Source: Acidobacteriota bacterium (GTDB taxonomy: Bacteria > Acidobacteriota > Polarisedimenticolia > Gp22-AA2). From it: a DNA stretch of 64,000 nucleotides. The notes beneath the pieces were generated by a model, which was given only the letters and a program-made list of their open reading frames with translations, was not told where the DNA came from and did no database searches. The position numbers and the translations under genes were made by a program. Where the stretch lies: assembly GCA_018606725.1 (NCBI GenBank), contig JAGYID010000014.1:1895-65894 (forward strand). The letters are read 5' to 3'. Below, one piece after another: positions 32,620 through 63,128 of this stretch. Every line of letters begins with the position of its first letter. Within the stretch, counting starts at the first letter, position 1.

Positions 32620-33279
32620 ATGGCACTGCGTATTGGAGACGAGGCCCCCGAGTTCACGGCCCAAACCACCCAGGGAACCATCAACTTCCACCAGTGGATC
32701 GGCGACGGATACGCCATCCTGTTCTCGCATCCGAAGGACTTCACGCCGGTCTGCACGACCGAGCTCGGTTACATGGCCGGCCTGAAGCCGGAGTTCGACA
32801 AGCGCAACTGCAAGATCATCGGGCTGAGCATCGACTCGGTCGAGGACCACACGCGCTGGTCCCGGGACATCGAGGAGAGCCAGGGGCACGCCGTCAACTA
32901 TCCGATGATCGGCGACTCGGATCTCAAGGTCGCCAAGCTCTACGACATGATCCACCCGAACGCCACCGGCGAGGCCAAGGGACGCACCGCCCAGGACAAC
33001 GCCACCATCCGCTCGGTGTTCATCGTCGGCCCCGACAAGAAGATCAAGGCGACGCTGACCTATCCGATGAGCACCGGCCGGAACTTCGACGAGGTCCTGC
33101 GTCTGCTCGACTCGATTCAGCTGACCGCCAAACACAAGGTCGCCACCCCGGTCAACTGGAAGCAGGGGCAGGACGTGATCATCGTGCCCGCGGTCAGCGA
33201 CGAAGAAGCCCGGCAAAAGTTCCCGGGCGGATGGAAGGCGCCGAAGCCGTACATCCGCACGGTGCCGCAGCCGAGGTAG
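32620..33279 (+). CDS. 1-Cys peroxiredoxin (Prx6 subfamily).
   Basis: FTPVCTTE peroxidatic-Cys motif and Prx6-type C-terminal extension. Confidence 0.85.
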   Translation: MALRIGDEAPEFTAQTTQGTINFHQWIGDGYAILFSHPKDFTPVCTTELGYMAGLKPEFDKRNCKIIGLSIDSVEDHTRWSRDIEESQGHAVNYPMIGDSDLKVAKLYDMIHPNATGEAKGRTAQDNATIRSVFIVGPDKKIKATLTYPMSTGRNFDEVLRLLDSIQLTAKHKVATPVNWKQGQDVIIVPAVSDEEARQKFPGGWKAPKPYIRTVPQPR

Positions 33280-40167: not shown

Positions 40168-40266
40168 GTCGACCTCCCTCTTTTGGTGGTCCGACCCGTG
40201 TCGAGGCACGCGCCGGCGATTCGAAGCGCGGCAAGTCTATCAGAGGGGTGCTATCCTCGCTGCCCG

Positions 40267-42153
40267 ATGATTTCTGCGCTCAGCCACGCCGGCAGCGTCG
40301 CTCTTCTCGCGCTTCTGTTCCATGCCACCGGATCGCTCATCGAGCGGGTCGCACCGTGGGGGGAGCTTCGCACCCTCGACCGCGGCCTGGTTCGGATCAC
40401 CGTCGGCCTCGTCGGCTGGATAGCGGCTCTGTTCGTTCTGGCGTGCGCGGGCGGGCTGCGCCGCGCGGTGGTCCTGCCGCTCGTCGCCGCCGTCATCCTC
40501 GTCGCCGCCCCGCGCCTGATCCGGGGCGGACGGGACATCCTGGCGCGCCCGGGAGGAGAACCGGCGGAGGATCCGTCATCGCCATGGCGACGGGTGGGCG
40601 CGCATCTCCTGCCCCTCGCCGTGCCGGCCGCGGTGCTGGTCGGTGTCTGGGTCTTCGCGCTGACTCCGGGGATCGGCTGGGACGACGACACCTATCACCT
40701 CACCCTCCCCAAGCTCTATGTCGCCCACGGCGGTTTCGTGCGGGTGCCCTTCTCCGTTTACTCGCACTGGCCGCATGCCGTCGAGCTGCTGAACGCGCTC
40801 GCGCTGATCGTCCACGACTATCTGACCGCAAAGCTGCTGCAGGTCCTCTTCCTCGGTCTGCTGCTCCTCGCCGTTTACCGGGTCGCGCGGCGGCGTGCCT
40901 CGCGCCTCGCCGGGTTCCTGGCGGTGCCGTTGGTCCTCGGCAACCAGGTCCTGCTCAACCAGGCGCCGGTCGCCTACGTCGATGTCGCCTTCGCGTTCTT
41001 CTTCTTCATGGCGATTGCGCTGGCGTGGGAGCACCTCGATTCCGCGCGCCTGGCGCCGCTGGTCCTGTCGGGGCTCTGCTGCGGCGCCATGGCGGGCTGC
41101 AAACTCTCGGGCCTCGTCGGTCTCGCCTGCGTCCTGGCCCTCGTCGTGGCGGCGCGCCCGGCGTCCGCCGTCGCGCGCCCCGCCCCGCCCCGGCCTGGTC
41201 GCGTCATCGGCGGCCTGGTGTTGCCGGCGCTCATCCTCGCCGTTCCCTGGTATGTGAAGAGCTGGATCGAAACGGGTGACCCGTTCTATCCGCTGCTGTA
41301 TCGATACCTGGGCGGGGTGGAATGGAGCGCCGATCTGGGCCGGCAGTTTCTGGAATGGCAGCGGTCGATCGGCATGGGCCGATCGGCGGCCGATTATCTG
41401 GCGCTGCCGCTCCGGGTGATCCTGTCCGGAGGACCCGGCTACGCCCGCTTCGACGGCGGCATCGGCGCCCTCTGGATCATCCTCGTTCCCCTGGCTGCGG
41501 CGGCGAGCCTGCGGGTGCCGATCATCCGGCGGGCCCTCCTGCCGGCGGCGGTCTATTTCGCGGCGTGGGCGCTCACCTCGCAGCAGATGCGCTTCCTGAT
41601 CCCGGTGCTGCCGCTGCTGGCTTTCTCGGCGGGCGCGGCGATCGAAGCGCTGCTCGGGAGGCTGGGGCAGCCCGCGCGTCGCGTCGCGGGCGGCATCCTG
41701 GTCTCGGGCGTCTGTCTTTCGCTGCTGGTGCAGGCGTGGCCGCTGCTCGCGGAGGCCCGGTTCATCGGAGCCGCGATCCTTCAGGGCGGCCCCGAGCGGC
41801 TCGGCTCGCCGATCCCGCCCGGATACGCATTCCTCAACGCCCAGGCGCCGGGCGACGCCAAGGTCATGCTGCTCAACACCAACTTCGGTTTCTTCCTCGA
41901 GCGCGCCTACATCGCCGACAGCTTCTTCGAGGCATCGCAGATGAACGCGCTGCTGCTCGACGCCGGCACCGCGACCGGGATCCGGGAGCTCATGGCCAGG
42001 CTCGGCATCACCCACGTCTACGTCGCGAACCGGGACTGGGGCATTCCCTATCCGCCGGCCTTGTGGGAGTTCCTGGGGAATGCCGGAAACGCCGAGCTCG
42101 TCTACGCCTGCCCCGGCGAGCAATGCTTCATCTTCCGGCTGCGCGGCTGGTCA
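40267..42153 (+). CDS. GT39/ArnT-like membrane glycosyltransferase (lipid-carrier-dependent). The 3' end is undefined because no in-frame stop codon occurs before 44580.
   Basis: More than 10 TM helices with GT-C-type loops. Protein-like sequence ends near 42.15 kb, where the convergent regulator gene ends. Beyond that point the ORF is antisense to that gene. Confidence 0.5.
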
Positions 42154-49054: not shown

Positions 49055-50107
49055 TCAGGCCGTGGCCCCGCCGCAGGAGGAGCCGGAGCCGGCGGTGCAG
49101 CCGTAGCAGTGGTTACCGGTGACGACGCGCCGGGCGTGCAGGACCGACGGGTCGAAGTCGCGGATGTGGGCCGGCGCGCCGTGGGCGAGGGTCAGGTCGA
49201 GCATCTGGTTGAAGTCGCAGTCGTACAGCCGCCCGTCCCATCCGACGGAGAGGGTATACCGGCACATTACCCCGGCGGCAGCCACCGGGTTGAAGGCGTT
49301 TACCAGCCGCTCCATGTACCCCTCGTAATTGCCGGAGCGGATCAGGAACTCGAGGAAGCGGCTGATCGGCATGTTGGTGATGGTGTACAGGTTGTTGAAG
49401 ACGATGCCGTGCTCGTGGGCCAGCCGCTGCCGGAAGTGCGCCTCCTGCGACGGCTGCGCCGGGGGCAGGAACGCGCCGACGGGATTGGTGACCAGGTTCA
49501 GGACGAGGCCGCTGCCGTCGCAGCCGTAGCCGAGACCGTTCAGAACCCGCAGAGCCTGGAGCGACTTATCGAAAACGCCGGCGCCGCGCTGGGCGTCGGT
49601 CTGCGACGGGACGACCGACGGGAGCGAGGCGACAATCTCGACGCGGTGCCGCGCCAGGAAGCCGCCGAGATCCCCCTGCGACGGCAGCAGCAGGACGCTC
49701 AGGTTGCAGCGGTCCATGACCCGCCGGCCGAGCCGCCGTGACTCCTCGACCAGGTAACGGAAGGCGGGGTTCAGCTCCGGCGCGCCGCCGGTGATGTCGA
49801 CCGCCGGGATGTCGGTGCGCGCCAGCGCCGCCATGCACGCCTCGGCCGTGGCCTGGGTCATGACCTCGGCGCGATCGGGCCCGGCGTCGACGTGGCAGTG
49901 GCCGCAGGTCTGGTTGCACAGCTTGCCGACGTTGATCTGGAACACCGTGATGCCGGTGGCCCGCAGCGGCGCGAGCCGGGCGCCGGCCAGCATCGCGTCG
50001 AAGCGCGGTTGGCCGTTGGGCGACTCCAGTAGGCGCACCTGCTCGCCCGGCGCGGCCAATGCGCTGCCGCGCGCCTTGAGGCTCCGGGTCGGAGGAGGCA
50101 CCGGCAT
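49055..50107 (-). CDS. arsS: Arsenosugar-biosynthesis radical SAM protein ArsS.
   Basis: CNQTCGHCH radical-SAM cluster motif and C-terminal Cys-rich tail (HCYGCTAGSGSSCGG), characteristic of the ArsS family. Confidence 0.75.
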   Translation of the reverse strand: MPVPPPTRSLKARGSALAAPGEQVRLLESPNGQPRFDAMLAGARLAPLRATGITVFQINVGKLCNQTCGHCHVDAGPDRAEVMTQATAEACMAALARTDIPAVDITGGAPELNPAFRYLVEESRRLGRRVMDRCNLSVLLLPSQGDLGGFLARHRVEIVASLPSVVPSQTDAQRGAGVFDKSLQALRVLNGLGYGCDGSGLVLNLVTNPVGAFLPPAQPSQEAHFRQRLAHEHGIVFNNLYTITNMPISRFLEFLIRSGNYEGYMERLVNAFNPVAAAGVMCRYTLSVGWDGRLYDCDFNQMLDLTLAHGAPAHIRDFDPSVLHARRVVTGNHCYGCTAGSGSSCGGATA

Positions 50108-50111
50108 CTCC

Positions 50112-50444
50112 CTACATCGAGATTTTGGTGGCGACGTTCCGCATCTGCACGCCGTGCACGAGCGACGCACCTCCCCGGATGGCGCAGGTGACGTGCACCG
50201 CTTCGGTCATCTCCTCGACGCTGGACCCCTTCTCCAGGCAGGCCTGCGTGTAGGCGTCGATGCAGTACGGACACTGGACCGCGTGCGCCACCGCCAGCGC
50301 GATCAGCGCCTTCTCCCGCTCGGTCAGCGCCCCCTCGGCGAACACGGCGCCGTAGTAGGCCATGAACTTCTCCCACAACGCCGGGTTCCCCTTCCCCATG
50401 TCGGCGAAATGACCGAGATCCTTCGGGTGGTAATAGGTCTCCAT
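50112..50444 (-). CDS. Carboxymuconolactone-decarboxylase (CMD/AhpD)-family, arsenosugar-associated peroxidase-like protein.
   Basis: 110 aa with the CMD core AVAHAVQCPYCIDAYT. Sits 4 nt upstream of arsS on the same strand. Confidence 0.7.
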   Translation of the reverse strand: METYYHPKDLGHFADMGKGNPALWEKFMAYYGAVFAEGALTEREKALIALAVAHAVQCPYCIDAYTQACLEKGSSVEEMTEAVHVTCAIRGGASLVHGVQMRNVATKISM

Positions 50445-50640
50445 GATGCGCCTCCTCAATGCCGCGCCTCCTGAATGACGCGCCTCCTGACGCGGCGACG
50501 GGCCGGAACGGCTGGACGATGCCGGGAACGCCGCGCAGCGTATCACCGGCGGCGCCGGCCGTCGAGGCTGGCCCGCGGTCCTGCTCCGCGTACTCCGGAC
50601 TCCGGTCGGCATGCTCGCGCTCCTGTATAATCCCGCCCTC

Positions 50641-51561
50641 ATGAGCCGCGCCAAACAGGGATCGAGAGACGCGAAGCAGGGACCGGGAGAGGCGAAGCGG
50701 ACGTCCGGGGAGACCACCCGGCGGGTCGAGGCGGTCATCGATCCCCAGGGGGTCCTCGAAGGAGCCGGGGTCAGGCTGCGCCGCAGCATCGGCACGCGGG
50801 AGATGAATTATCTCGACCCGTTCCTCCTGCTCGACGACTTCGGCTCGCACGACCCGCGGGACTACGAGGCCGGCTTCCCGATGCACCCGCACCGTGGCAT
50901 CGAGACGGTCACCTACGTCCTGTCGGGCGCGGTGCGTCACAAGGACACGCTCGGAAACTCCGGCAGCATCGGCGCCGGAGACATCCAGTGGATGACCTCC
51001 GGGCGCGGCATCCTGCACGAGGAGATGCCGCAGGTCCGGCCCGAGGGGATCGCCGGCTTCCAGCTCTGGGTGAACCTCCCCGCGAAGGCGAAGATGACGG
51101 CGCCGCGCTACCAGGACGTGCGGGCCGACCGCATCCCCGAGTACACGACCCCCGACGGCGCGCGCATCCGGGTGGTGGCGGGGACGGCCGGCGACGTGCG
51201 AGGGGCGGTGACCGACATCGCCGCCGACCCGATCTATCTCGACGTCCTGGTACCGCCCCGGAGCGTTTACCGCGGCCCGGTCGAGCGCGGCCACACCGCC
51301 TTCGCGTACGTGTTCCAAGGGAGCGCCCGCTTCCCCGGCCCGGGCCGCGAAGAGGTGGCCGTCCCGAGCCCCCGCCTGGTCGTCCTGGGCGACGGCGACG
51401 AGGTCCGCGTCACCACGGCCGACGAGCCGGCGCGCTTCCTGCTGGTCTCCGGCAAGCCGCTCCACGAGCCGATCGCGCGCTATGGACCGTTCGTGATGAA
51501 CACCCGCGAGGAGATCGAGCAGGCGCTCGAGGACCTCCGCCGCGGCACCTTCGTCACCTAG
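50641..51561 (+). CDS. Pirin-family protein (cupin).
   Basis: Pirin N-terminal metal-site region HPHRGIETVTYVLSG...H...E, then the C-terminal cupin. Confidence 0.8.
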   Translation: MSRAKQGSRDAKQGPGEAKRTSGETTRRVEAVIDPQGVLEGAGVRLRRSIGTREMNYLDPFLLLDDFGSHDPRDYEAGFPMHPHRGIETVTYVLSGAVRHKDTLGNSGSIGAGDIQWMTSGRGILHEEMPQVRPEGIAGFQLWVNLPAKAKMTAPRYQDVRADRIPEYTTPDGARIRVVAGTAGDVRGAVTDIAADPIYLDVLVPPRSVYRGPVERGHTAFAYVFQGSARFPGPGREEVAVPSPRLVVLGDGDEVRVTTADEPARFLLVSGKPLHEPIARYGPFVMNTREEIEQALEDLRRGTFVT

Positions 51562-51677: not shown

Positions 51678-53045
51678 ATGCCGATTTTCAGGGGACTTAA
51701 GACTGGCACTCGGGTGCGGGAACGGATGACCCGCGGAGCGGCGATCTTCGCCGCGGTTCTCTTCGCCGCGGGCCCGGCCGTGGCAGTTGCTGACGAAACG
51801 TGCATGTCGCCCTACATGGCCAAGATCACCTCGCAGGAGGACTTCGTCTACGTCTGGACCCTCGGCACGAAGGGGGTCGGCGACGAGTCCGACAAGCTGG
51901 TGACCATCGATGCGCGCCCCGGGTCGAAGACCTACGGCAAGGTGGTGAACACGCTGTCGGTCGGCGGGCGCAACGAGGCGCATCACGCCGGCTTCACCGA
52001 CGATCGGCGCTACCTCTGGGCCAGCGGTCTCGACACCAGCAAAATCTTCGTATTCGACGTCGCCACCGATCCGGCCCGGCCGCGGCTGCACAAGACGATC
52101 GCCGACTTCGTCGCCAAGACGGGCGGGGTCGTCGGGCCGCACTCCCTGTACGCCCTCCCCGGGCGCATGCTGATGACCGGCCTGTCGAACGACAAGGACC
52201 ATGGCGGCCGCACCGCGCTCGTGGAGTACGGCAATCAGGGCGCCTACATCGCCACCCACTGGATGCCGACGGCCGCCGATCCGCGCGGCGCCGCCATCGA
52301 GAAGGTCGCCGACGGCTACGGCTACGACGCGCGCGTCCTGCCGCGCCGCAACGTCATGCTGACCTCGTCGTTCACCGGCTGGTCGAACTACATGATGGAC
52401 TTCGGCAAGATGTTGCAGGACCCCGAGGCGATGAAGCGCTTCGGCCAGACGGTCGTGGTCTGGGACCTGCACGCCCGCAAGCCGCTGAAGGTCCTCGACG
52501 TGCCGGGATCGCCGCTCGAGATTCGCTTCGCCTGGGGGGCGAGGCACAACTACGCCTTCACCAGCAGCGCCCTCACCTCCAAACTGTGGCTCATCCACGA
52601 AGACAGCCCGAACGTCTGGAAGGCGCAGGCGGTCGCCGACATCGCCGACCCGTCGAAGGTCCCGCTGCCGGTCGACATCAGCCTGAGCGCCGACGACAAA
52701 AGCCTGTGGGTCGACACCTTCATGGACGGCATGGCGCGGTTGTTCGACGTCAGCGACCCGTTCCATCCGAAGCAGGTGTACGAGAAGAAGATCGGCGCGC
52801 AGCTCAACATGGTGTCGCAGAGCTGGGACGGGGCGCGCGTCTACTTCACCTCCTCGCTGCTGGCGAACTGGGACAAGAAGGGTCAGGACGACGAGCAGTT
52901 CCTGAAGGCCTACGCCTGGGACGGCAAGGAGCTGACCGAGAAGTTCGCCGTCGACTTCTACGCCGAGAAGCTCGGCCGCCCGCACATCATGCACTTCGGC
53001 GCCTACAGCCTGTACGGCAAGACCGGCATCGCGGCGGGCAAGTAG
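51678..53045 (+). CDS. Selenium-binding protein (SBP56 family; methanethiol-oxidase-like), exported.
   Basis: Signal peptide, then SBP56 homology over the whole length (HHAGFTDDRRYLWASGL..., C-terminal HFGAYSLYGK). Confidence 0.8.
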   Translation: MPIFRGLKTGTRVRERMTRGAAIFAAVLFAAGPAVAVADETCMSPYMAKITSQEDFVYVWTLGTKGVGDESDKLVTIDARPGSKTYGKVVNTLSVGGRNEAHHAGFTDDRRYLWASGLDTSKIFVFDVATDPARPRLHKTIADFVAKTGGVVGPHSLYALPGRMLMTGLSNDKDHGGRTALVEYGNQGAYIATHWMPTAADPRGAAIEKVADGYGYDARVLPRRNVMLTSSFTGWSNYMMDFGKMLQDPEAMKRFGQTVVVWDLHARKPLKVLDVPGSPLEIRFAWGARHNYAFTSSALTSKLWLIHEDSPNVWKAQAVADIADPSKVPLPVDISLSADDKSLWVDTFMDGMARLFDVSDPFHPKQVYEKKIGAQLNMVSQSWDGARVYFTSSLLANWDKKGQDDEQFLKAYAWDGKELTEKFAVDFYAEKLGRPHIMHFGAYSLYGKTGIAAGK

Positions 53046-53231
53046 CTGGTCCGCGCCCGCCTCGTTCCGCCGACAGGGGCCTTTCTCCTGTCGCTGGCGC
53101 TCGCCTGCGCCGGCCTGCTGGAGCCGGCGGCATCCGGAGCGGCGGCGCCAGCCGGAGCGCCGCCGCCGGCCGATCAAGAAGCCGCCGCGCGGGATGACGC
53201 CGCCGAGGCTCCGCCCGCCGGGCTGGAATAC

Positions 53232-54905
53232 GTGCCGCCGGCGCCGGGGAGCTATGCGCTGCCACCGATCCAGCCGGCGGCAGACGGCGCGGTGATCGAC
53301 GCCGACGGAACGCCGCGCCGGCTGTTCGACTACCTCGGCGATCGCGACATCCTGCTCAGCTTCGTGTACACGCGCTGCACCGACACCGAAGGCTGCCCGC
53401 TCGCGACCGGCGTCCTGGAGATGGTCCGCGAGGGGCTCGCGAAGGATCCGGAGCTGGCGGCGATGGTGCGTCTGGTGACCCTGAGCTTCGACCCGGAGCG
53501 CGACAGCCCGGGCGCCATGCGCCGCTATGCCCTGCACGCCGGCGGCATCGACCCCGGCACCCGCTGGAACGAGCGGCCGTGGGTCTTTCTCACCACCGCG
53601 TCCAGGGCCCGGCTGCAGCCGATCCTCGACGGCTACGGGCAGTCGGTGGTGCGAGAGCTCGACGCCGCCGGCCGGCCGACCGGTGATTTCACCCACGTGC
53701 TCAAGGTCTTCCTCATCGATCGCCGGAAGCGGGTGCGCAACATCTACAGCACCAGCTTCCTGCACCCGGCGATCGCCCTCAACGACCTCAAGACCCTGGC
53801 GCTGGAGGAGGTCGACCCGCGGGCGCTCGGGCGCGTCCGGCATCCGCCGCGCGGCCTGCCGCCGGTGCCGCTGCCGGCGGACGACCCACCGACGATCCCG
53901 AAGCTCCGCCTCGGGCGGAAGCTGTTCCTCGACCGGCGCCTGTCGCGCAACGGCACCCTGTCCTGCGCCATGTGCCACGTGCCGGAGCAGGGCTTCGCCG
54001 TCAACGAGACCCGCACGGCCGTGGGCTTCGAGGGCCGGACGCTGCGCCGCAACGCCCCGACCCTGCTCAACGTGGCGTACGCCGCGCCGTTTTTCCACGA
54101 CGGCCGCGAGCCGGCGCTGGAGATGCAGCCGTTCGACGTGTTTCTCAATCCCGATGAGATGGCGGCGCCGTCGCTGGGCGCCCTGGTGGAGACGGTCCGG
54201 TCATTGCCGGACTACGCGCCGCTGTTCGAGGCGGCCTTCCGCGCCCAGCCGGGCGTCGAGGCCATCGGCCGGTCGATCGCCGCCTACCTGCGCACCCTGC
54301 TGTCGGCGAACTCGCCGTTCGATCGCTGGCGCTTCGGCAAGGACGGGGCGGCGCTGGGCGCCGCGGCGCAGCGCGGCTTCGCGCTGTTCACCGGCCGGGG
54401 CCGCTGCGCGTCGTGCCACCGCATCGGCGACGATGCAGCCCTGTTCACCGATCACCAGTTTCACGACACCGGAGTGGCGTGGTTCGCCGCCGAGACCCGG
54501 CGGACGGAGACCGGGCCGGTGACCGTGCAGCTCGCCCCGGGCGTGACGGCGCCGCTGTCGCGCGCGGCGGTCGACAGCGTCGGCGGGCCGGCGGCGAACG
54601 ACCTGGGTCGTTACGAGGCGACCGGCGATCCGGCCGATCGGTTCCGCATCAAGACGCCGACGCTGCGGAATGTCGCGCTCACCGCGCCGTACATGCACGA
54701 CGGGTCGCTGTCGACGCTGCGGGAGGTGGTGGAGTTCTACGACCGCGGAGCGCGCCCGCACGAGGGCCTCGATCCGATCCTGAAGCCGCTCGACCTTCGG
54801 GAGGGCGAGGTCGACGATTTGGTGACGTTCCTGGAGAGCCTCACCGGCGACAACATCGACGAGCTGGTCCGCGACGCGCGCAGCGAGGCGGTGGGAAATC
54901 CGTGA
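53232..54905 (+). CDS. SCO1/SenC-like thioredoxin-fold domain fused to a di-haem cytochrome c peroxidase (CCP/MauG family).
   Basis: SCO-like FVYTRCTDTEGCP motif, then two haem-binding sites CAMCH and CASCH and the CCP C-terminal PTLRNVALTAPYMHDGS. The true start may lie upstream, near 53046, giving a lipoprotein-type signal (LSLALAC) from a non-ATG codon. Confidence 0.75.
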   Translation: MPPAPGSYALPPIQPAADGAVIDADGTPRRLFDYLGDRDILLSFVYTRCTDTEGCPLATGVLEMVREGLAKDPELAAMVRLVTLSFDPERDSPGAMRRYALHAGGIDPGTRWNERPWVFLTTASRARLQPILDGYGQSVVRELDAAGRPTGDFTHVLKVFLIDRRKRVRNIYSTSFLHPAIALNDLKTLALEEVDPRALGRVRHPPRGLPPVPLPADDPPTIPKLRLGRKLFLDRRLSRNGTLSCAMCHVPEQGFAVNETRTAVGFEGRTLRRNAPTLLNVAYAAPFFHDGREPALEMQPFDVFLNPDEMAAPSLGALVETVRSLPDYAPLFEAAFRAQPGVEAIGRSIAAYLRTLLSANSPFDRWRFGKDGAALGAAAQRGFALFTGRGRCASCHRIGDDAALFTDHQFHDTGVAWFAAETRRTETGPVTVQLAPGVTAPLSRAAVDSVGGPAANDLGRYEATGDPADRFRIKTPTLRNVALTAPYMHDGSLSTLREVVEFYDRGARPHEGLDPILKPLDLREGEVDDLVTFLESLTGDNIDELVRDARSEAVGNP

Positions 54906-54944
54906 TCGCGTGGTCCGTGACCGGGTCGTCCGCGGGCGGCGGGC

Positions 54945-55499
54945 TCACTCCTTCGGCAGCGCGTCCGTCCTTGGCTCGAAGTCCGGCACCGTGCCGAGCC
55001 CTGCCGACACCAGGTTGGCGAACCGGGCCAGTCCGATGACCAGGATCGCCTCGAGAATCTGCTCGTCGGTGAAGCCATAGGTCCGCAGCCCCTCGACGTC
55101 GTCGCGGCTGGCCTTGGTCGCTTGGCGGTTCAGCTTCAGCGCGAAATTCAAGAGCGCTTTGTCGGCCACCGGCAGGTCGGTGTGCGCGTGGTCGACGGCG
55201 ATCTGCTCCGGCTTCGGCCCCTTCAGCCCCAGCATCTTGACGATCTCGCAGTGCGCCGTGACGCAGTATGTGCTGAGATTGGCGGCCGAGCAGACCAGGA
55301 AGATGTATTCCTTCTGCGCCCGCGACAGGGCGCCCTCCTGGATCAGGATGCTCCAGACCAGGCGCGTCTCCGCCTCGATCAGGTCGGGTCGCATCGTCTG
55401 GGCCCGGTAGAAGTTGGGGATGAACCCGAACTGCCGCCGCGCCTCCGCGAACGGCAGGAACTCGTTCTCGTCGAGCGGCACCTGGCGCAGGAAACTCAT
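54945..55499 (-). CDS. CMD/AhpD-family (carboxymuconolactone decarboxylase-like) redox protein.
   Basis: CMD core with YCVTAHCEIV (Cys/His motif). Sits 6 nt downstream of 6-Cys peptide paralogue 3. Confidence 0.7.
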   Translation of the reverse strand: MSFLRQVPLDENEFLPFAEARRQFGFIPNFYRAQTMRPDLIEAETRLVWSILIQEGALSRAQKEYIFLVCSAANLSTYCVTAHCEIVKMLGLKGPKPEQIAVDHAHTDLPVADKALLNFALKLNRQATKASRDDVEGLRTYGFTDEQILEAILVIGLARFANLVSAGLGTVPDFEPRTDALPKE

Positions 55500-55504
55500 C
55501 GGCG

Positions 55505-55777
55505 CTAGACGCAGGAGCCGGTCGAGCAGCTGCTCCCGTTGTACTTGTAGCAGTAGTACCCGACGAGCTTGCCGCAGTTGCTGTGACGGTGCCCGCCCGA
55601 CACGCATCCCTTGTCGTTGCACTGGACCTGCGCCTGGACGTCCGGCACCGCCAGCCCTGACAGCGCCGATAGATACGGCGACCCGCCCTGCCGCTCCCCG
55701 CCCAGGAACGCCGGCAGCGCCGCCAGCACGGCCAGCACCAGCAATCCGCGCAACGCAATCCTCACGGTTCTGCTCAT
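55505..55777 (-). CDS. Secreted 6-Cys peptide, paralogue 3 of 3 (90-aa precursor).
   Basis: GAGGAGG RBS. Signal peptide, SPYLSALSGLA segment, C-terminal CNDKGC...C...C...C...C. Confidence 0.6.
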   Translation of the reverse strand: MSRTVRIALRGLLVLAVLAALPAFLGGERQGGSPYLSALSGLAVPDVQAQVQCNDKGCVSGGHRHSNCGKLVGYYCYKYNGSSCSTGSCV

Positions 55778-55918
55778 CGGTTTCCCTCCTCGTCTCGGGT
55801 ACGCGCACGCACGGGAAAACAACCCGTGGGCTGCTGATTGATTTCAGGTGGCGTCATCCTACCAGCACCGGCGCGGCGCGGGCAAGCGCTGCCGCGCGGT
55901 GTTGACCGGACGGCCGAC

Positions 55919-57460
55919 TCACCCCGCGTCGCAGGCATCCCCGATGTCGTCCCGGTCGAGGTCGCTCTGATCGGTGTTCGGCGCCGTCGGGCAATTGTCG
56001 CAAGCATCACCGACCAGGTCGCCGTCGGCATCCTCCTGCCGCGCGTTCTGGATCCCGGGGCAGTTGTCGTCGCAGCCGGCGGTCAGACCGCCGGTGCAGC
56101 GGTGGTCGGCGTACTGCCCGTCACCGTCACCGTCGTTGAGGATGCCGTCGCTGTCGAAATCGGCCAGCGGCACCGCCTGCGTGAAGATGTCGGTGTCGCC
56201 GCGGCGGCTGTCCGACCAGATCGGGTGGATGCTCGTCCCGGCGACGATCATCTGGTTGTAGTCGCCGAGGAAATCGGCGGACGGGTTGTATGGCAGGAGC
56301 CTGTCCGAGGCGCGGATGTTGGGGCCGAACGATGCGCCGCCGTCGGTCGAGGTGGCCAGGGTGACGGCAAACGACAGGTTGTCGGCGGCGCCGCGCCGAT
56401 CGAGGAAGGTGACGTGCACGGCGCCGGCGTCATCGACGTTGATCCACGGGAGGAACTGCGCCGCGCCGTTGCCGGGCGCGTCGTCGTTGACCCGCACCGG
56501 GTCGCTCCAGGTGTCGCCCCGGTCGTCCGAGTAGCGCAGCAGGATGTCGATGCTGCCGAAGCGGGCGTCGGGATACACGACGTACAGGCGGCCACGGTAG
56601 GGTCCGTTGCTGCGGTCGACGGCGTTCGCCGGACCGCCGGGATTGATGTCCGGCGGCTCAGCATAGTGCAGCCTTCTCTCGAGCGCGATGTCGCGGCTCA
56701 GCCAGGTGCGCCCGCCGTCGAGCGAGCGGTCGAGCCAGATGGCATTGCTCAGGCCGAAATCGAACCACGTCACGTACAGCTCGCCTCCCGGGCCGATCGA
56801 CACGACCGAGTAGATGCTCTGGTAGTAGCGCGGGTCGGACAGGAGGACCGGCGCCGAGAACGTCGTCCCGCCGTCGAGGCTGGTCCTGTAGAAGATCCCC
56901 GAGCCTACACCCGGCAGATTGCCCGACCAGACCAGATGCAGGGCCCCGGTGACCGGGTCCGCGGCGATCCACTCCTTGTCGGGGGAAGCGTAAATGGTCA
57001 AGTCGTTGATGAGCGCGAACGTCTTCCCGCCGTCGACCGACCTGTACAGGAACATCGATTCGTCGGCGAAAAACCCGCCGGTGAGGTTGTACCCGAGCGT
57101 GGTGAGGTAGAAGGTCCCCCGGCTGTCGACGGCCAGCACCGGATCGGCGGCGTATTGCAGTCCGGGCGGATTCGGCACTGTCTGGCTGCGCCAGCGCTGG
57201 CCGCCGTCGGTCGTCAGGGCGGTGCCGATGGTCACCGTGTCCCCCGGCCCGTAATTGATCCAGGCGGCGACGCGGCGCTGCGGATCCGCCGGGTCGACCG
57301 CCTGCGTCGTCTCCCCCTGCCTGATCCGTAATTTGTCCTGATTGACCAGCACGTTCTGCGGGAAGGGAGGCGCCGCCGGTGCGGCCCAGACCAGTGCGGT
57401 CCCCAGGAGAGCGGTCATCATCATGGAGCGGGATCGGGATACCAAAGCGTTGCGGGACAT
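55919..57460 (-). CDS. Secreted BNR/Asp-box repeat (sialidase-like beta-propeller) protein with C-terminal thrombospondin type-3 calcium-binding repeats.
   Basis: Several S/TxDGGxTW Asp-boxes (TTDGGQRW, SVDGGKTF, SLDGGTTF, SLDGGRTW, SDDRGDTW, STDGGASF). The C-terminal D-rich DxDxDGxxD repeats contain Cys. Confidence 0.65.
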   Translation of the reverse strand: MSRNALVSRSRSMMMTALLGTALVWAAPAAPPFPQNVLVNQDKLRIRQGETTQAVDPADPQRRVAAWINYGPGDTVTIGTALTTDGGQRWRSQTVPNPPGLQYAADPVLAVDSRGTFYLTTLGYNLTGGFFADESMFLYRSVDGGKTFALINDLTIYASPDKEWIAADPVTGALHLVWSGNLPGVGSGIFYRTSLDGGTTFSAPVLLSDPRYYQSIYSVVSIGPGGELYVTWFDFGLSNAIWLDRSLDGGRTWLSRDIALERRLHYAEPPDINPGGPANAVDRSNGPYRGRLYVVYPDARFGSIDILLRYSDDRGDTWSDPVRVNDDAPGNGAAQFLPWINVDDAGAVHVTFLDRRGAADNLSFAVTLATSTDGGASFGPNIRASDRLLPYNPSADFLGDYNQMIVAGTSIHPIWSDSRRGDTDIFTQAVPLADFDSDGILNDGDGDGQYADHRCTGGLTAGCDDNCPGIQNARQEDADGDLVGDACDNCPTAPNTDQSDLDRDDIGDACDAG

Positions 57461-57642
57461 GTGTGTTTCCCCCTGCGGCCTGTCGACGGCGGCCAACGAT
57501 TCCCGGCGGCGAGTCTTGTGCGTACACCCTCAGTGGAGCGAGCGCGAATGTCTTGCGGGCAAGCTACGGTGAGATTGAGGGGCTGTCAACGACATTCGCC
57601 GGCAACGCGCGGCCGCCTGCCATGTCGGTGGTGAGCCGGCGT

Positions 57643-59247
57643 TCAGGCGCGGGACGGCCGCCCGCGGCGGAAGTCATGGAGGATCTCGCGGGCGGCGTTG
57701 CGTCCCGGCGCGCCGGTCACGCCGCCGCCCGGGTGGGCGCCGGAGCCGCACAGATAGAGGTTGCGAATCGGCGTCCGGTAGCGGGCCCAGCCGGGCAGCG
57801 GGCGCATCGAGAACAGCTGGTCGAGCGCCATGTCGCCGTGACAGATGTTGCCGCCCGTGAGCCCGAAGGTCTCCTCGAAATCGAGCGGCGTCAGGATGTG
57901 CCGCTGCAGGATCGCGCCTTTGAGATTAGGCGCGTACTCGGCCAGGGTGTCGATCGCCAGGTCTCCGAGCTCCTCCTTCCGCGTTCGCCAGTCGCCTTCG
58001 GCCAGCCGGTAAGGGATGTACTTGATCGAGATCGACATCACGTGGCGGCCGGGCGGGGCGAGCGTCGGGTCGAGGAACGACGGGACCACCACGTCCAGAT
58101 AGGGCCGGCGCGACGGCCGCCCGGCACGGTAGTCGAGGAACGCCGCCTCGAGGTACTCGGGGTCGGCGCCGGCCACCTGGATGTTGCCGTGCAGATGCGG
58201 GCCGGCGCCGGGGAGCGCCGTGAAGTCGGGCGGCTCGGAGAGCGCCAGGTTGACCTTGCCGGAGTTGCCGTTGCAGCGCAGGGTCTCGATGCCGCGCACG
58301 AAGTCGTCCGGCAGGTTCGACCGCCCCACCAGCCCGAGGAAGGTCCGCTTCGGATCGGCATTGGAGGCGACGACCCGTCCGAGAACCTCCTCCCCGCCCT
58401 CGAGGACGACCCCGCGGGCGGCGCCGTTCCGCACCACGATGCGCTCGACCGCGGCGCCGGTCCGGATCTCGGCTCCGTGGGCGCGGGCCGCCGCGGCCAT
58501 CGCCCGGGTGATGCCGCCCATCCCGCCGCGGACGAAGCCCCACAGCCCGGGGGCGCCCATCGTCCCTCCTTCGTAGTAGTGCAGCAGCGGAAAGGCGGTG
58601 CCGGGCGTGCGCGGGCTGCCGTACACCCCGATGGTCCCGCCGGCGGCGATGCTGGCCTTGAGCTGGGGCGACTCGAACCACTCGTCGAGCAGGTCGGCGG
58701 CGCTCATGGTCATCACTTTGACGAGCAGCGCCCGGTCGGCGCCCGGCAGCGTCAGAAACCGGCGGCCGAGCCGCAGCAGTTCCAGCAATCCGCCCAGTCC
58801 GGGGCGGGCGATGTCCGGCGGCGTCTCGGCGAGCGTCGGGCGGATGAACTCCGCCAGCCGCGACATGGCGGCGCCGAACCGCGGGTAGGCCGCGGCGTCC
58901 TTCGGCGAGAAACGCGCGATCGCCGCCGCGTCCTCGTTCTCCCCCATCCCCAGCAGGAGATGGCGGCTGTCGGCGAACGGCGTGAACGATACCGGGCACG
59001 GCACGATGTCGAAGCCGTGCCGCCGCAGCTCGAGGTCGCGGATGATCTCCGGCCGCAGCAGGGTGCAGCAGTACGACGTCGTCGAGGCCTGGTAGCCGGG
59101 AAGAATCTCCTCGGTCACGCAGGCGCCGCCGACCAAGTACCGCCGCTCCAGCACCAGGACCGAGCGGCCGGCCCGGGCGAGATAACCGGCCGTCACCAGG
59201 CCGTTGTGACCGCCCCCGACGACGATCGCATCGTACGTCCGCGCCAT
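57643..59247 (-). CDS. Phytoene-desaturase-family (CrtI-like) FAD-dependent oxidoreductase.
   Basis: N-terminal dinucleotide-binding fold YDAIVVGGGHNGLVTAGYLARAG and CrtI-family length and C-terminus. Starts 18 nt after the upstream rSAM-STAS gene. Confidence 0.75.
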   Translation of the reverse strand: MARTYDAIVVGGGHNGLVTAGYLARAGRSVLVLERRYLVGGACVTEEILPGYQASTTSYCCTLLRPEIIRDLELRRHGFDIVPCPVSFTPFADSRHLLLGMGENEDAAAIARFSPKDAAAYPRFGAAMSRLAEFIRPTLAETPPDIARPGLGGLLELLRLGRRFLTLPGADRALLVKVMTMSAADLLDEWFESPQLKASIAAGGTIGVYGSPRTPGTAFPLLHYYEGGTMGAPGLWGFVRGGMGGITRAMAAAARAHGAEIRTGAAVERIVVRNGAARGVVLEGGEEVLGRVVASNADPKRTFLGLVGRSNLPDDFVRGIETLRCNGNSGKVNLALSEPPDFTALPGAGPHLHGNIQVAGADPEYLEAAFLDYRAGRPSRRPYLDVVVPSFLDPTLAPPGRHVMSISIKYIPYRLAEGDWRTRKEELGDLAIDTLAEYAPNLKGAILQRHILTPLDFEETFGLTGGNICHGDMALDQLFSMRPLPGWARYRTPIRNLYLCGSGAHPGGGVTGAPGRNAAREILHDFRRGRPSRA

Positions 59248-59264: not shown

Positions 59265-61226
59265 TCAGCGGTACAGCGCGAACAGGGTCGCCAGGGCGGC
59301 GACCTCGCCCGTCGGCGGCAGGGCGATGCGGACGCGCTCGCGATGAGCCTTCAGCCCCTCGGCGATCCGTTCCGCCGCACCGGGCTCGACGTGCAGCAGA
59401 CGGCGGAGATCGAGGATCAGCCGATCCTCGGTCCGCTTCAGGGCGTCGCGCAGGTCGGCGGCGAGCCTCTCCGCCCCCGCCGCAGCCAGGCGCCCCTTCA
59501 CCTGCACCCAGACCGTCGATTCGGGGCGCAGCTCCACGTCCACGCCGTGCGTCGCGGCCCGCAGGCGATCCCAGGCGCGCGCCGGCCGCGACTCCTCCGG
59601 CATGCGGAAGGTGTGCCGCATCGTCGGCGGGTGCTGGAACAGACCGAGCTTCAGGGTGAGCCCGGTCCAGGCGGCCATGCCGACGGCGGCGACCGACTGG
59701 AGACGCTCGGTCCAGGTGGGCGGCCCCAGCGTCCGGTGGATGCGCGCCTGGAGATCGGCGATCCACTTGCGGGCCCCGGCGCCCGGGCCGAGCGCCCGGC
59801 CGGCCAGGAAGATGGGATACGTCCTGCGAATCTCGGTCGCGAAGCGCGCCGCCTTGCCGCGCAGCAGGGGGCTGGGAGAATCCTTCAGCTTCAGGTATCC
59901 CAAGAGCCAGCTCTCGATCGATCGGAAGATGGAAGGTCCGAGCCGGTGGAAGTCCTCCCGGAAACAGCGGGCCTGGGCCGCCTGGATCTCCCCGGGCGTC
60001 ATGGTCGGGTGGGTCACCATCGCCGAGAACCCGGTGCAGTTGCGGTAGTACAGCTCGCGATCGTCCGCCAGCTCGCGGTGCATCAGCCCCTCGCTCATGA
60101 CGCGCTCGAAGAAAGGCGTCCCGGGGGTCGGTCCGTAGATCAGGAACTGGGACAGGGCCGGCTTGAGCGCCAGGAGACCCGACAGCTCCTCGTCGATGAT
60201 CGCCGGGGTCTGGTACGGCAGGCCCACGATCATCGACGCCAGGATGCCGATGCCGTGCTCGCGGAACTCCCTGAAGACCTCCTCGGCGGGTCGTCCCGAC
60301 TGCTTGGCGAATCCCGACCGGGTTCCCTCGTAGCCGATCCAGACACCGTCGATGCCCATCTCGAGAATTTCGGTGATGGTGTACTGGCTGATGGCGCGGA
60401 TGCTCGCGAACGCGAACACCGACAGGGGCACGCCGCCTTCCCGGACGCAATCGCGGAATTCCAGGGCGCGCTTCCGGTTGAGCAGGAAATCCTCATCGAG
60501 GATGACGATCGACATTCCCGGATCGACCTCGAGGTAGCGCTGCACCACCCGGTAGATGTCACGGCCCGTCGGCAGCAGGCGGATGTGCCGGCGCTTGAAG
60601 AAGTAGGACGTGCAGCAGAAATCGCAGCCGTTGGGGCACCCCAGGCCGGCGAACACCATGCCGGTGCGCGAGGCCTCCCTGCCGAACACCTTCATCCGGC
60701 TGACCATCAGCGGGTGGCCGTACGGCATCGGGATCTCCGGCTCGCCCAGCAGCCGCCGCATGAAACCGACCCCCTCCTCGCGGCAGATGTGATCGGAATA
60801 GGGCGCCAGGACCTCGTCGGAAAGGACGGTGCCGTACCCTCCGAGAATGATCGCGGACCGCGGCGCGTGGGTCCGGACGAGGGCGACGACCTCTTTCATC
60901 CGGTGAAAGGTCGCCAGCAGGAACGACACGCCGACGAAGTCGTACCCTTTCTTCAGCTCGCGGATGAGCTCCGCCCTGGTCGGATACTGCAGGACGGTGG
61001 CCGGCGCCTCGAGGTTCTCGGCGACGTATTCCAGCGAGAAATGCACGTGGGTGGCCCGGGGGCTGAACAGGCCCTGCGCGCGGGTCACCTGGCCGAACAA
61101 CAGCTCGTAGCCGACGCTGGGGCCGTCGCCGTGCGCCTCGCCCAGCGGCCGGCAGACGCTGGTCAGCAGGACTTTCTTCACGGCCCTTCCCATGGCCGGG
61201 TTCGCAGCGGCCCCACGCATTGTCAT
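59265..61226 (-). CDS. B12-binding-domain radical SAM protein with a C-terminal STAS (anti-sigma-antagonist-like) domain.
   Basis: B12-binding Rossmann region, CPNGCDFC radical SAM motif, and a C-terminal ~110 aa resembling STAS (VELRPESTVWVQVKGRL...LILDLRRLLHVEPGAAERI). The start could be the second Met (61193). Confidence 0.7.
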   Translation of the reverse strand: MTMRGAAANPAMGRAVKKVLLTSVCRPLGEAHGDGPSVGYELLFGQVTRAQGLFSPRATHVHFSLEYVAENLEAPATVLQYPTRAELIRELKKGYDFVGVSFLLATFHRMKEVVALVRTHAPRSAIILGGYGTVLSDEVLAPYSDHICREEGVGFMRRLLGEPEIPMPYGHPLMVSRMKVFGREASRTGMVFAGLGCPNGCDFCCTSYFFKRRHIRLLPTGRDIYRVVQRYLEVDPGMSIVILDEDFLLNRKRALEFRDCVREGGVPLSVFAFASIRAISQYTITEILEMGIDGVWIGYEGTRSGFAKQSGRPAEEVFREFREHGIGILASMIVGLPYQTPAIIDEELSGLLALKPALSQFLIYGPTPGTPFFERVMSEGLMHRELADDRELYYRNCTGFSAMVTHPTMTPGEIQAAQARCFREDFHRLGPSIFRSIESWLLGYLKLKDSPSPLLRGKAARFATEIRRTYPIFLAGRALGPGAGARKWIADLQARIHRTLGPPTWTERLQSVAAVGMAAWTGLTLKLGLFQHPPTMRHTFRMPEESRPARAWDRLRAATHGVDVELRPESTVWVQVKGRLAAAGAERLAADLRDALKRTEDRLILDLRRLLHVEPGAAERIAEGLKAHRERVRIALPPTGEVAALATLFALYR

Positions 61227-61418: not shown

Positions 61419-63128
61419 ATGGCGAAGATCGGCAATCTGATTTGCCTGACCCCGCGTGACTCGTACGTCGTCGACGAACCGATCCGCAAGCCCGGCTTGC
61501 TGGGGGGCCTCGAGCGCCGGATCGGTCCGTTCTTCCGCAGCCCCGGGATCGCCTTCCCCTACCTGATCGGCTTCCTGCGCAAGAACGGCATCCTCGACGC
61601 CGACACGCGCGTCGCCGTGCAGCACGACAAGATCGAGGGGCCGACATCGTTCGAGGACATCCTCGCCGACAAGGTCGAGCTCGGCCGCGGCGATCACGAC
61701 GTCCTGTTCGTCACCGCCTATACGAACTCGGCCCGCGAGGCGTATCGCCGGGCCCGCGAGGCGCGCGCCGCCTACGCCGCCGCCGGCAAGAATCTCACGG
61801 TCGTGTTCGGCGGGCCGCACGCCTCGGCGATGCCCGAGGAGGGAACGCGCCGCGGTCACGTCGATGCGACCGTCGCCGGCGAGGGCGAGTGGGCCGCTTC
61901 GGCGCTGCTCACCGACCTCAAGGAGGGGCGGCCGGTGAAACCGGTCTACAAGGCGACCTTCGATCGCATCCGCGATCGCGGTACGTTGGCCCTCGACATG
62001 GGGATCTGGGACGGGCTGACCCGCCGGCCGCAGCAGATCGTCTCCTCGACCACCCTGGCCCGCGGTTGCAAGCTGGACTGCCACTTCTGCGCCGTCTTCC
62101 TGACCAACGGCCCGACGGTGCGCAACCGCGACACAGCCGATGTCGTGGACGAGATCCGGGCCCAGGGCCCGCGTTACACCCGGGAGACGATCGACCGGAT
62201 TCCGCCGGGCTTCTACAACGCCATCCTCAAGGCGGCCGTCAAGCTGCCGATCGTCGGCCCGCGATACGGCGATCGCCTGATCGCCAAGATGGGGCCGGGC
62301 TTCACCGACAGTTACTTCTTCTGGGACGACAACCTGTACAACGCCGCCGGCTCCTTCCAGGCGCTGTGCGAGGCGATCCGCCCCGTCGGGCGCCAATGGG
62401 CGGCCGAGCTGACCATCGACCTGGCGGAGAAGCCGGAGCTTCTGAAGGCGGCCTACGACAGCGGCTGCCGCGATCTGTTCCTCGGCATCGAGTCGGTCAG
62501 CCAGACGGCGATTGACGGCCTCGACAAGTGGTCGAACAACACCGCCGGCATGCGCGAGATGGTTCAGCGCGTCCACGATGCCGGCATCAACGTCATGGGC
62601 GCCTTCGTCTTCGGGCTGGACGGCGACGACCCCTCCTGCTTCGACCGGACCCTCGAGTTCATCAATGCGACCGGGATCGACTTCATCGTCGCCAACATCA
62701 TCCAGCCCTACCCCGGCACCGGGACCTTCAAGGACGCGGTCGCCGGCGACGATCTGCTCCCCTGGACCCGCTGCCCCGACGACGCGGACGTCGCGATGGA
62801 TTACAACTGGCCGCTGTTCGACGGGGCGCACGTCCTGGTCCGCCCGAAGGCGATGACGATCGACCAGCTGCAGGAGGGCTATTACTACTTCCTGCGCGAA
62901 GCCTACTCGCTGACCGGCATCGTGCGCCGCTACCGCGGGCACGCCTACGATGTTCCCTGGGCGATCTCCCACTTCACGCGCAACTACCTGATGAGCCGCT
63001 ACGGCATGATCAAGACGGCCCACGCCATCCGCCGCAAGGGCGCCAAGCCGGTGGGGCTCGTCGTCGCCCCGGAGGACGGCCGGCGGGCACCCGAGCCCGG
63101 CTTCGTCCCGGAATCTTTCACCGGCTGA
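61419..63128 (+). CDS. B12-binding-domain radical SAM protein (class B rSAM).
   Basis: Divergent from 59265..61226. Rossmann-like B12 region and CKLDCHFC radical SAM motif. Confidence 0.75.
   Translation: MAKIGNLICLTPRDSYVVDEPIRKPGLLGGLERRIGPFFRSPGIAFPYLIGFLRKNGILDADTRVAVQHDKIEGPTSFEDILADKVELGRGDHDVLFVTAYTNSAREAYRRAREARAAYAAAGKNLTVVFGGPHASAMPEEGTRRGHVDATVAGEGEWAASALLTDLKEGRPVKPVYKATFDRIRDRGTLALDMGIWDGLTRRPQQIVSSTTLARGCKLDCHFCAVFLTNGPTVRNRDTADVVDEIRAQGPRYTRETIDRIPPGFYNAILKAAVKLPIVGPRYGDRLIAKMGPGFTDSYFFWDDNLYNAAGSFQALCEAIRPVGRQWAAELTIDLAEKPELLKAAYDSGCRDLFLGIESVSQTAIDGLDKWSNNTAGMREMVQRVHDAGINVMGAFVFGLDGDDPSCFDRTLEFINATGIDFIVANIIQPYPGTGTFKDAVAGDDLLPWTRCPDDADVAMDYNWPLFDGAHVLVRPKAMTIDQLQEGYYYFLREAYSLTGIVRRYRGHAYDVPWAISHFTRNYLMSRYGMIKTAHAIRRKGAKPVGLVVAPEDGRRAPEPGFVPESFTG

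Follow-up and report, generated by a model that had tools for sequence, protein, structure and literature searches.

The P3 peptide gene and the adjoining CMD gene

The window analyzed here is a 64-kb stretch (64,000 nucleotides) of a contig from an Acidobacteriota bacterium. On its minus strand, a gene for a small six-cysteine peptide, P3, is followed directly by a gene for a CMD/AhpD-like enzyme. The P3 gene (55505-55777; peptide P0001) starts with an ATG at 55777, stops with a TAG at 55505-55507, encodes 90 residues (MSRTVRIALRGLLVLAVLAALPAFLGGERQGGSPYLSALSGLAVPDVQAQVQCNDKGCVSGGHRHSNCGKLVGYYCYKYNGSSCSTGSCV), and has a GC content at third codon positions (GC3) of 0.94. A Shine-Dalgarno sequence, GAGGAGGG, can be read directly at 55784-55791 (minus strand), 6 nt before the ATG. 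A sequence-only reading made earlier had described P3 as a six-cysteine peptide carrying the motif SPYLSALSGLA behind a Shine-Dalgarno sequence, and the open reading frame, the six cysteines and the ribosome-binding site were all confirmed. The same reading had placed P3 6 nt upstream of the CMD gene on the same strand. The same-strand adjacency stands, but the spacer is 5 nt long: CGCCG, at 55500-55504 (minus strand), lies between the P3 stop (TAG) and the CMD ATG and holds no Shine-Dalgarno sequence.

Residues 1 to 26 of P3 (55700-55777, minus strand) make up a predicted N-terminal signal or anchor segment, judged by an AlphaFold helix over residues 3 to 25 and by the charge and hydropathy of the peptide family to which P3 belongs. 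The SPYLSALSGLA motif occupies residues 33 to 43 (55649-55681, minus strand) and is the best-conserved segment of that family. V47-Q48-A49 (55631-55639, minus strand), three residues before the first cysteine, would provide a putative A-x-A-type cleavage site. All six cysteines fall within the last 38 residues, in a C-terminal domain (CNDKGCVSGGHRHSNCGKLVGYYCYKYNGSSCSTGSCV; 55508-55621, minus strand) with loops of 4, 9, 7, 7 and 4 residues and a core net charge of +3. None of the three family peptides encoded in the window matches a Pfam or NCBIfam model at an E value of 1 or below.

The CMD gene (54945-55499, minus strand) encodes a 184-residue "peroxidase-related enzyme" without a signal peptide. 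Its product scores 31.3 bits against Pfam CMD PF02627 (cutoff 23; E=2e-7) and 103.2 bits against NCBIfam TIGR01926 (cutoff 81.8; E=1.4e-29), and the nearest solved structures are 2OYO, 2PRR and 6K40. Residues 17 to 175 align with 2OYO, which puts Glu64, Cys79 and His83 at the AhpD catalytic positions. The CxxxHC motif noted in the sequence-only reading was found in the active-site stretch N74-L-S76-T-Y-C79-V-T-A-H83-C84 (55248-55280, minus strand). Compared with 2OYO (N-R-C-L-Y-C-A-V-S-H-G), Ser76 replaces the first cysteine of CxxC and an extra cysteine, Cys84, follows the histidine. The canonical CxxC with a downstream His and an upstream Glu is therefore absent from this protein; judged by its sequence, it belongs to the CMD fold family but would not carry out the canonical two-cysteine chemistry. 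We take Cys79 to correspond to the nucleophile of Mycobacterium tuberculosis AhpD and the lost cysteine (Ser76 here) to the resolving one.

This active site recurs in close homologues. The pattern N[LM]STYCVT.HC was present in 121 of 121 close homologues, 112 of which have NLSTYCVTAHC. Like AhpD-like TIGR01926 enzymes, the window CMD protein scores above curated cutoffs and keeps the Glu, the second Cys and the His; unlike them, it and all of these homologues have Ser in place of the first CxxC cysteine and the added Cys84. The protein is thus best described as a predicted cytoplasmic, AhpD-like thiol oxidoreductase. There were 1724 homologues at an E value of 1e-20 or below, with more than 120 at 64% identity or higher, and the subfamily labels were Vicinamibacterales and Polarisedimenticolia. 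A second CMD-fold gene lies 4.5 kb away, where an AhpD-like peroxidase-like protein (TIGR04169, E=9.6e-58) and the radical SAM protein ArsS (TIGR04167, E=1.4e-127) form an arsenosugar-type pair (49055-50459, minus strand), with a pirin gene after it (50611-51561).

Expression signals of the peptide-CMD pair

A candidate promoter for the pair is the promoter-like element TTGCCC-N15-TGgTAGGAT (55856-55885, minus strand), which combines a -35 hexamer with an extended -10 element and stands 78 nt upstream of the P3 ATG. The pattern TTGC-N17-TGnTAsGAT occurred once in the window, with 0.00 occurrences expected from shuffled sequences. It also occurred once each in two other loci with a P3-type peptide gene, L001 and L012, and in both it lies upstream of that gene. 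In 54800-56100, a region that includes the peptide gene, a generic consensus scan detected neither a sigma-70-type promoter nor a terminator. The P3 5' untranslated region folded no better than shuffled sequence, and neither an Rfam scan nor a tRNA scan of the window gave a match. Because of the upstream element, the lack of an internal promoter and the 5-nt spacer without a Shine-Dalgarno sequence, a single peptide-CMD transcript with coupled translation is most likely the arrangement at this locus, as far as the sequence can tell.

Peptide-CMD adjacency and ECF sigma operons at other loci

Four P3-type loci are informative on gene order: the window, L001 (a 62-kb contig), L011 and L012; L013 and L014 are too short to tell. 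In the window the order is peptide, 5-nt spacer, CMD. In L001 the peptide gene is followed by a gene for a 78-residue zf-HC2 anti-sigma factor (ZAS) and then by CMD, with SBP56 and SCO1/CCP-MauG genes divergent upstream. In L011 the order is arginase, ZAS, CMD and peptide. In L012 the peptide gene precedes a PD40 beta-propeller gene, and there is no CMD gene. A P3-type peptide thus adjoins the same CMD subfamily on the same strand in three of the four informative loci, in three different gene orders, and the outer flanks of these three loci are unrelated to one another. The sequence-only reading had suggested that the P3 copy was recruited into a redox operon and had asked whether CMD genes flank the peptide elsewhere. 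The conserved adjacency in L001 and L011 supports the recruitment, as does the failure of the scan to find a sigma-70-like promoter inside the peptide gene.

The neighborhoods of five of the 121 close CMD homologues were examined, including two without a peptide. In these two, L015 and L017 (CMD 80% and 77% identical to that of the window), the order is ECF (extracytoplasmic function) sigma factor, ZAS and CMD, each set preceded by a second sigma/ZAS pair, and no family peptide was found in six frames of either contig. These two consecutive ECF-sigma/zf-HC2 anti-sigma pairs, with the CMD gene behind them, are in the regions 1080-4741 of L015 and 53-2540 of L017. The first sigma gene of L015 was called as a 607-residue product with a faint CMD match. 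Upstream of the second sigma gene, L015 and L017 share the motif TTTGACA ... CGTCCAACGA; this ECF-type promoter motif is absent from the window. The ZAS protein resembles RsrA (TIGR03988, E=5.4e-10, below cutoff).

In all four ZAS loci (L001, L011, L015 and L017), the ZAS stop codon overlaps the CMD start by 4 nt. This overlap suggests that CMD is habitually translated in tandem with the gene that precedes it. The window differs from the ECF-sigma/ZAS/CMD type: a tblastn search with the L001 ZAS protein found nothing in it, and its CMD locus has neither the sigma nor the anti-sigma gene, with the peptide gene in the anti-sigma position. CMD genes are known to be co-transcribed with ECF sigma factors, for example, in ECF41 systems (PMC3426412). 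As in such ECF-CMD operons (ECF41, PMC3426412; SigR/RsrA type), close homologues of the window CMD gene end operons of the order ECF sigma, zf-HC2 anti-sigma, CMD. Unlike these, the ECF41 systems (PMC3426412) have no anti-sigma factor, and their CMD proteins keep the CxxC.

The sequence-only reading had offered a second idea, that the CMD protein takes part in processing of or immunity to the peptide. In its direct form, CMD would keep the peptide cysteines reduced before Sec export or tailor the peptide as in a RiPP (a peptide that is made by ribosomes and modified after translation), and coupling would give stoichiometric co-synthesis. The 5-nt coupling, the nucleophilic Cys, the His and the Glu retained in CMD and the adjacency in three gene orders would all suit such a role, and bufferins, which are Sec-exported RiPPs with modified cysteines, provide a precedent (PMC11626156). 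However, the CMD subfamily outnumbers the P3-type peptides at least 100-fold, with 1724 homologues against a handful, and both peptide-free loci examined have ECF-ZAS-CMD operons. The active-site pattern is shared by all 121 close homologues and, judged by the five neighborhoods examined, does not appear to follow the presence of a peptide; CMD also has no signal peptide. A CMD neighbor is missing from the P1 and P2 subtypes, from most of the family and from L012, and in L001 and L011 the gene to which CMD is coupled is ZAS and not the peptide gene. A direct enzyme-substrate or immunity relation is unlikely, because CMD is mostly peptide-free, its active site keeps one pattern among the close homologues, the other subtypes lack CMD and the two proteins are predicted to lie on either side of the membrane; we consider action of CMD on the peptide itself to be quite improbable.

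We find it somewhat probable, instead, that the peptide and CMD genes form one expression unit in which the two products are co-expressed and are not enzyme and substrate. Several points weigh against this reading. Only three paired loci were found, all from related organisms, with CMD proteins 71 to 76% identical. L012 has the peptide without CMD, and the peptide-free CMD homologues in L015 and L017 are closer to that of the window (77 to 80% identity), which makes the association patchy. That the peptide is exported, cut at A-x-A and disulfide-bonded is in each case predicted; the AlphaFold confidence is only moderate (mean pLDDT of 69 to 72), and the A-x-A lies about 24 residues past the hydrophobic helix, an unusual position for signal peptidase I. 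The peptide and CMD are also predicted in different compartments, so the reason for the linkage is not evident.

The first of these points lead to a serious rival, inheritance of the block without functional coupling. The peptide gene would have landed once beside ZAS-CMD in a common ancestor, local rearrangements and deletions would have given the three orders, and the 5-nt spacing would be a by-product of ZAS deletion. Apart from the peptide-free CMD homologues and L012, this explanation gains from the relatedness of all three CMD-linked loci (L001 proteins are 72 to 87% identical to those of the window) and from the other peptide subtypes, whose neighbors are unrelated and variable: genes for an AmmeMemoRadiSam radical SAM enzyme, a methyltransferase, a thioesterase, a helix-turn-helix protein and an RHS protein, with no CMD neighbor at the loci examined. 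On the other hand, the same-strand adjacency has been kept in three gene orders whose outer flanks are not syntenic. The proportion of synonymous differences (pS) among the P3 orthologues is 0.41 to 0.57, so there was time for the genes to separate, and the layout in the window makes CMD depend on the promoter and ribosomes of the peptide gene. We therefore regard descent without functional meaning as a minority possibility, and co-expression as one unit as the preferred reading.

A family of probably exported six-cysteine pre-pro-peptides

A profile search of 5.8 billion proteins returned 20 relatives, and 61 after iteration. Searched exhaustively with HMMER, 1.84 billion cluster representatives yielded 356 clusters (50% identity) at an E value of 0.001 or below and 159 at 1e-10 or below. 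In the HMMER set, members are 83 to 98 residues long with end-to-end matches, and a few carry N-terminal extensions. Source labels on the peptides are few, with one Candidatus Polarisedimenticolia and one Candidatus Dormibacteraeota; the sequences are mainly metagenomic, and the labels of the family point mostly to Acidobacteriota. Scanning metagenomes gave matches in L002 and L003 that are chance matches inside a PilY1-like protein, and when genome contigs were scanned with the P3-type and P2-type alignments, the result was nothing or a single chance match (L004, Synechococcus).

The architecture is uniform among the approximately 200 members counted. Net charge averages +2.8 over the first 12 residues, the best 15-residue Kyte-Doolittle hydropathy averages 2.68, and a proline follows the hydrophobic stretch in 69% of members. 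Charge, hydropathy and the predicted helix together fit a Sec signal or anchor at the N terminus. The motif [S/G/T]PY[L/V]SALSDLA, at about residue 32, carries 3.24 bits per column, the highest in the protein, with P34, Y35, S37 and L39 conserved in 99 to 100% of members. A linker of 8 to 11 residues joins it to the cysteine domain and ends in A-x-A (Ala in 97% at alignment column 49 and in 66% at column 47). The C-terminal domain of 31 to 43 residues completes the protein. Exactly six cysteines are found in 195 of 200 members, the first and last cysteine spacings are both Cx4C in 160 of 200, and the last cysteine is the end of the protein in 134 of 200. Outside the cysteines, this domain carries 0.95 bits family-wide and is usually cationic, with a mean net charge of +1.9.

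AlphaFold models were built with a 67-sequence alignment. In the P3 model, the helix of residues 3 to 25 is followed by a low-confidence middle and four beta strands in the cysteine domain (pLDDT of 74 to 84). The model of P2, another window copy, has a helix at residues 5 to 24, a short low-confidence helix over the motif (residues 36 to 43) and four beta strands in the cysteine domain. A Foldseek search of the PDB with the peptide model returned nothing significant (best E value of 3). From these models and the family pattern, the peptide is probably an exported, disulfide-bonded six-cysteine mini-protein. Conservation is higher in the invariant pro-motif than in the folded domain, which implies that the motif has a conserved partner, for example a protease, a chaperone or an export factor.

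Such a leader raises another explanation, that the family consists of precursors of exported RiPPs or specially processed pro-peptides, with the motif recognized by a maturase or protease encoded in trans and with CMD unrelated to maturation. The contrast between the bits in the leader motif and in the core outside the cysteines fits this view, as do the several divergent copies in one genome (three copies in the window, a tandem pair in L014), the conserved A-x-A boundary and the exact C-terminal end at the last cysteine. Against it, no maturase gene of the MNIO, YcaO, lanthipeptide synthetase or SPASM radical SAM families was found beside the 12 peptide loci examined or near the window peptides. 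Likewise, no MNIO (DUF692) or DUF2063 partner was found among the Pfam-scanned window genes or the called genes of L001 and L005 to L017. The sole adjacent radical SAM gene, beside P0017 in L005, was considered as a RiPP lead and set aside, as it encodes an AmmeMemoRadiSam enzyme (TIGR04337). With that gene so assigned and no NCBIfam match, the SCIFF, ranthipeptide and sactipeptide classes were also set aside. The window itself has radical SAM genes of the ArsS and B12-binding types; these are 3.5 kb or more away and do not occur in L001. The core, moreover, is under strong purifying selection within subtypes and is predicted to fold alone. A RiPP or specially processed precursor is thus doubtful.

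Among described systems, bufferins are Sec-exported, cysteine-rich RiPP metallophores that are regulated by ECF sigma/anti-sigma pairs and linked to periplasmic metal stress (PMC11626156). The resemblance lies in the small precursor, the N-terminal Sec-type signal (predicted here) and the conserved cysteines (six in BufA2). The differences are the absence here of MNIO/DUF2063 partners and of a match to DUF2282 or another profile, the core of 31 to 43 residues instead of 61 to 68, and the extra invariant pro-motif (PMC11626156). With neither a DUF2282 match nor the partner genes, the peptides were not assigned to the bufferins, although one precursor type, BUF_6/12Cys, has no public profile (PMC11626156). 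By analogy, bufferins appear to be the nearest described analogue in logic (PMC11626156).

The possibility of a secreted cationic antimicrobial peptide, defensin- or bacteriocin-like, from which the ZAS-CMD module would protect the producer, arises from the cationic core (+3 in P3) and from the combination of a conserved pre-pro region with a variable, disulfide-rich mature part. Conotoxin/defensin-type precursors have this organization, in which the leader is conserved and the disulfide-rich mature part varies. In knottins (inhibitor cystine knot [ICK] peptides, with I-IV, II-V, III-VI connectivity), the fourth loop has a consensus length of 1 to 4 residues; that of P3 has 7, and with loops of 4, 9, 7, 7 and 4 the peptide was not assigned to this class. 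As in conotoxin/defensin-type pre-pro-peptides, the family has a signal, a conserved pro-region, a short cationic six-cysteine domain and several divergent paralogues in each genome. Its pattern, Cx4C...Cx4C without CxxxC or CxC, and its predicted all-beta fold without a helix are unlike those of bacterial cis-defensins (PMC11561630). With Cx4C at both ends in most members and models of four strands with no helix in the cysteine domain, a cis-defensin (CS-alpha/beta) assignment was rejected. An antimicrobial role also sits poorly with the lack of a conserved immunity or transporter gene beside family members at the loci examined, with cores that are conserved within subtypes and not rapidly diversifying, and with a CMD protein that is predicted to be cytoplasmic and mostly occurs without a peptide. 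We consider it the remotest of the explanations. The preferred description is that of a family of unannotated, probably exported cysteine-rich pre-pro-peptides, for which neither a Pfam or NCBIfam model nor a functional name exists.

Three ancient paralogues in the window

Besides P3, the window encodes P1 (86 residues, P0002; 31822-32082, minus strand; Shine-Dalgarno GAGGAGGA) and P2 (89 residues, P0005; 32263-32532, plus strand; Shine-Dalgarno AAGGAG), which are arranged divergently. The three copies are approximately 30 to 35% identical to one another, and each has orthologues of its own: P0008, P0009 and P0011 for P1; P0012, P0013, P0015, P0017, P0028, P0047 and P0063, among others, for P2; and P0003, P0004, P0006, P0007 and P0010 for P3, all of them from other metagenomes.

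The sequence-only reading had seen high DNA-level conservation of the motif region among the three copies and had taken it as a sign of recent duplication or gene conversion. Neither part was borne out. The 33-nt motif DNA is identical at only 20 to 22 of 33 positions between copies (61 to 67%), and 7 of the 10 codons for the same residue differ synonymously between P3 and P2. The low DNA identity and the synonymous differences indicate that the motif is kept by selection at the protein level, and together with a separate orthologue subfamily for each paralogue they refute a recent origin. Sequence comparison thus identifies the three copies as ancient paralogues. Among five P3-type orthologues, the ratio of nonsynonymous to synonymous differences (pN/pS) is below 1 in every segment of the peptide: 0.30 in the cysteine domain (the lowest), 0.39 in the motif and 0.60 to 0.65 in the helix and linker. 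On these alignments, each subtype keeps its own fixed core and the leader motif is common to all subtypes. The cationic, subtype-specific cores imply defined targets.

It had also been claimed that the other two copies lack a partner such as that of P3. Neither has a CMD neighbor, in agreement with the claim, but P2 has a 1-Cys peroxiredoxin gene 87 nt downstream on the same strand (32620-33279), which is followed by a cysteine synthase-rhodanese fusion gene (33287-34633). The spacer between P2 and the peroxiredoxin gene holds a possible separate promoter, TCGACC-N18-TAAGAT, and it too folded no better than shuffled sequence. A P2-peroxiredoxin link was set aside, as the syntenic locus L006 has neither the peroxiredoxin nor the fusion gene. 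In L014, two family peptides are encoded in tandem (154-713, plus strand), 20 nt apart and directly downstream of an apparent tRNA-gene 3' end; from this position, family members may be carried on an integrated element.

The methanethiol oxidase-like cluster and other genes of the window

The gene convergent with CMD (53232-54905, plus strand) encodes a fusion of SCO1/SenC (E=5.6e-9) and a diheme CCP/MauG domain (CCP_MauG E=2.6e-48). Before it lies an SBP56/methanethiol oxidase-like (mtoX-like) gene with a signal peptide (51726-53045, plus strand; Pfam SBP56 E=3.3e-46), whose product is 87% identical to that of the neighbor in L001. The mtoX-SCO1-mauG methanethiol oxidase cluster, including fused forms, has been described (PMC5739008), and the window has the same arrangement, an SBP56 homologue followed by SCO1/SenC and MauG-like domains in one fused gene (51726-54905). 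The described clusters differ in that no six-cysteine peptide or CMD gene is reported in them (PMC5739008). In both long contigs the mtoX and SCO1/MauG genes are next to the peptide-CMD pair; their orientation is convergent in the window but divergent in L001. With two related genomes, an association between the peptide unit and the mtoX cluster is suggestive.

Directly upstream of P3, on the same strand, lies a gene for a secreted BNR/sialidase-like beta-propeller protein (55919-57496, minus strand), whose C-terminal region of thrombospondin type 3 repeats has many Asp and Cys residues. This gene does not adjoin P3-type genes at other loci. A phytoene-desaturase-like FAD oxidoreductase gene (57643-59247), 2 to 5 kb from P3, is flanked by two genes of the B12-binding radical SAM type, of which the window has three (24852-26306, plus strand; 59265-61181, minus strand; 61419-63128, plus strand). 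Being absent from L001, the B12-binding radical SAM genes are probably unrelated to the peptide.

Farther away, 8054-19800 is a probable lipid or aryl-polyene-like biosynthetic cluster, with an acyl carrier protein-like open reading frame, two ketosynthase-family genes, a short-chain reductase-like open reading frame, methyltransferases, a lipid A-type acyltransferase, an FkbO/Hyg5-like chorismatase, a LolA-like protein and an FtsX/ABC exporter. At 40183-42150 (plus strand), a long open reading frame for a multi-pass, glycosyltransferase-like membrane protein was missed by the GC3-based gene caller because its frame stays open far into a regulator gene on the opposite strand.

A model for the peptide-CMD unit

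In the proposed model, P3 would be a pre-pro-peptide whose Sec-type signal or anchor helix carries the C-terminal half across the inner membrane. The amphipathic SPYLSALSDLA segment and the A-x-A would precede a cationic, four-stranded beta mini-protein of about 40 residues, presumably held by three disulfides. In the ancestral context, CMD would have stood at the end of a stress operon of the order ECF sigma, ZAS, CMD, and in the lineage to which the window belongs, P3-type peptide genes would have joined the ZAS-CMD module. The simplest history would start from an L001-like order of peptide, ZAS and CMD, with ZAS then lost in the window. The window CMD gene would now be transcribed from the sigma-70-type promoter of the peptide gene and translated by re-initiation 5 nt past the peptide stop codon. 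A cysteine-rich envelope peptide would then be co-expressed with a cytoplasmic thiol-stress enzyme, beside a methanethiol oxidase cluster that produces peroxide and sulfide, and we infer an envelope redox role for the peptide.

A bolder proposal extends this model. Peptides with the SPYLSALSDLA leader would be a new class of exported mini-proteins, either rich in disulfides or processed after translation and labeled so far mainly in Acidobacteriota, the motif docking a dedicated partner for processing or export that is encoded in trans. P3 would act as a periplasmic thiol or copper buffer, or as a redox partner, with methanethiol oxidase and SCO1-MauG, co-regulated with the cytoplasmic 1-Cys AhpD-like enzyme, and the other subtypes would have distinct targets. 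We offer it as a speculation that is rather unlikely to hold as a whole.

The few labeled members of the family come from poorly studied, uncultivated lineages (Polarisedimenticolia). The P3-CMD unit would represent the rewiring of a stress operon in which an exported peptide gene takes the place of the anti-sigma gene. If this is true, an AhpD-like enzyme has moved from ECF control to a housekeeping-type promoter, and the unit suggests a new accessory to methanethiol oxidase clusters.

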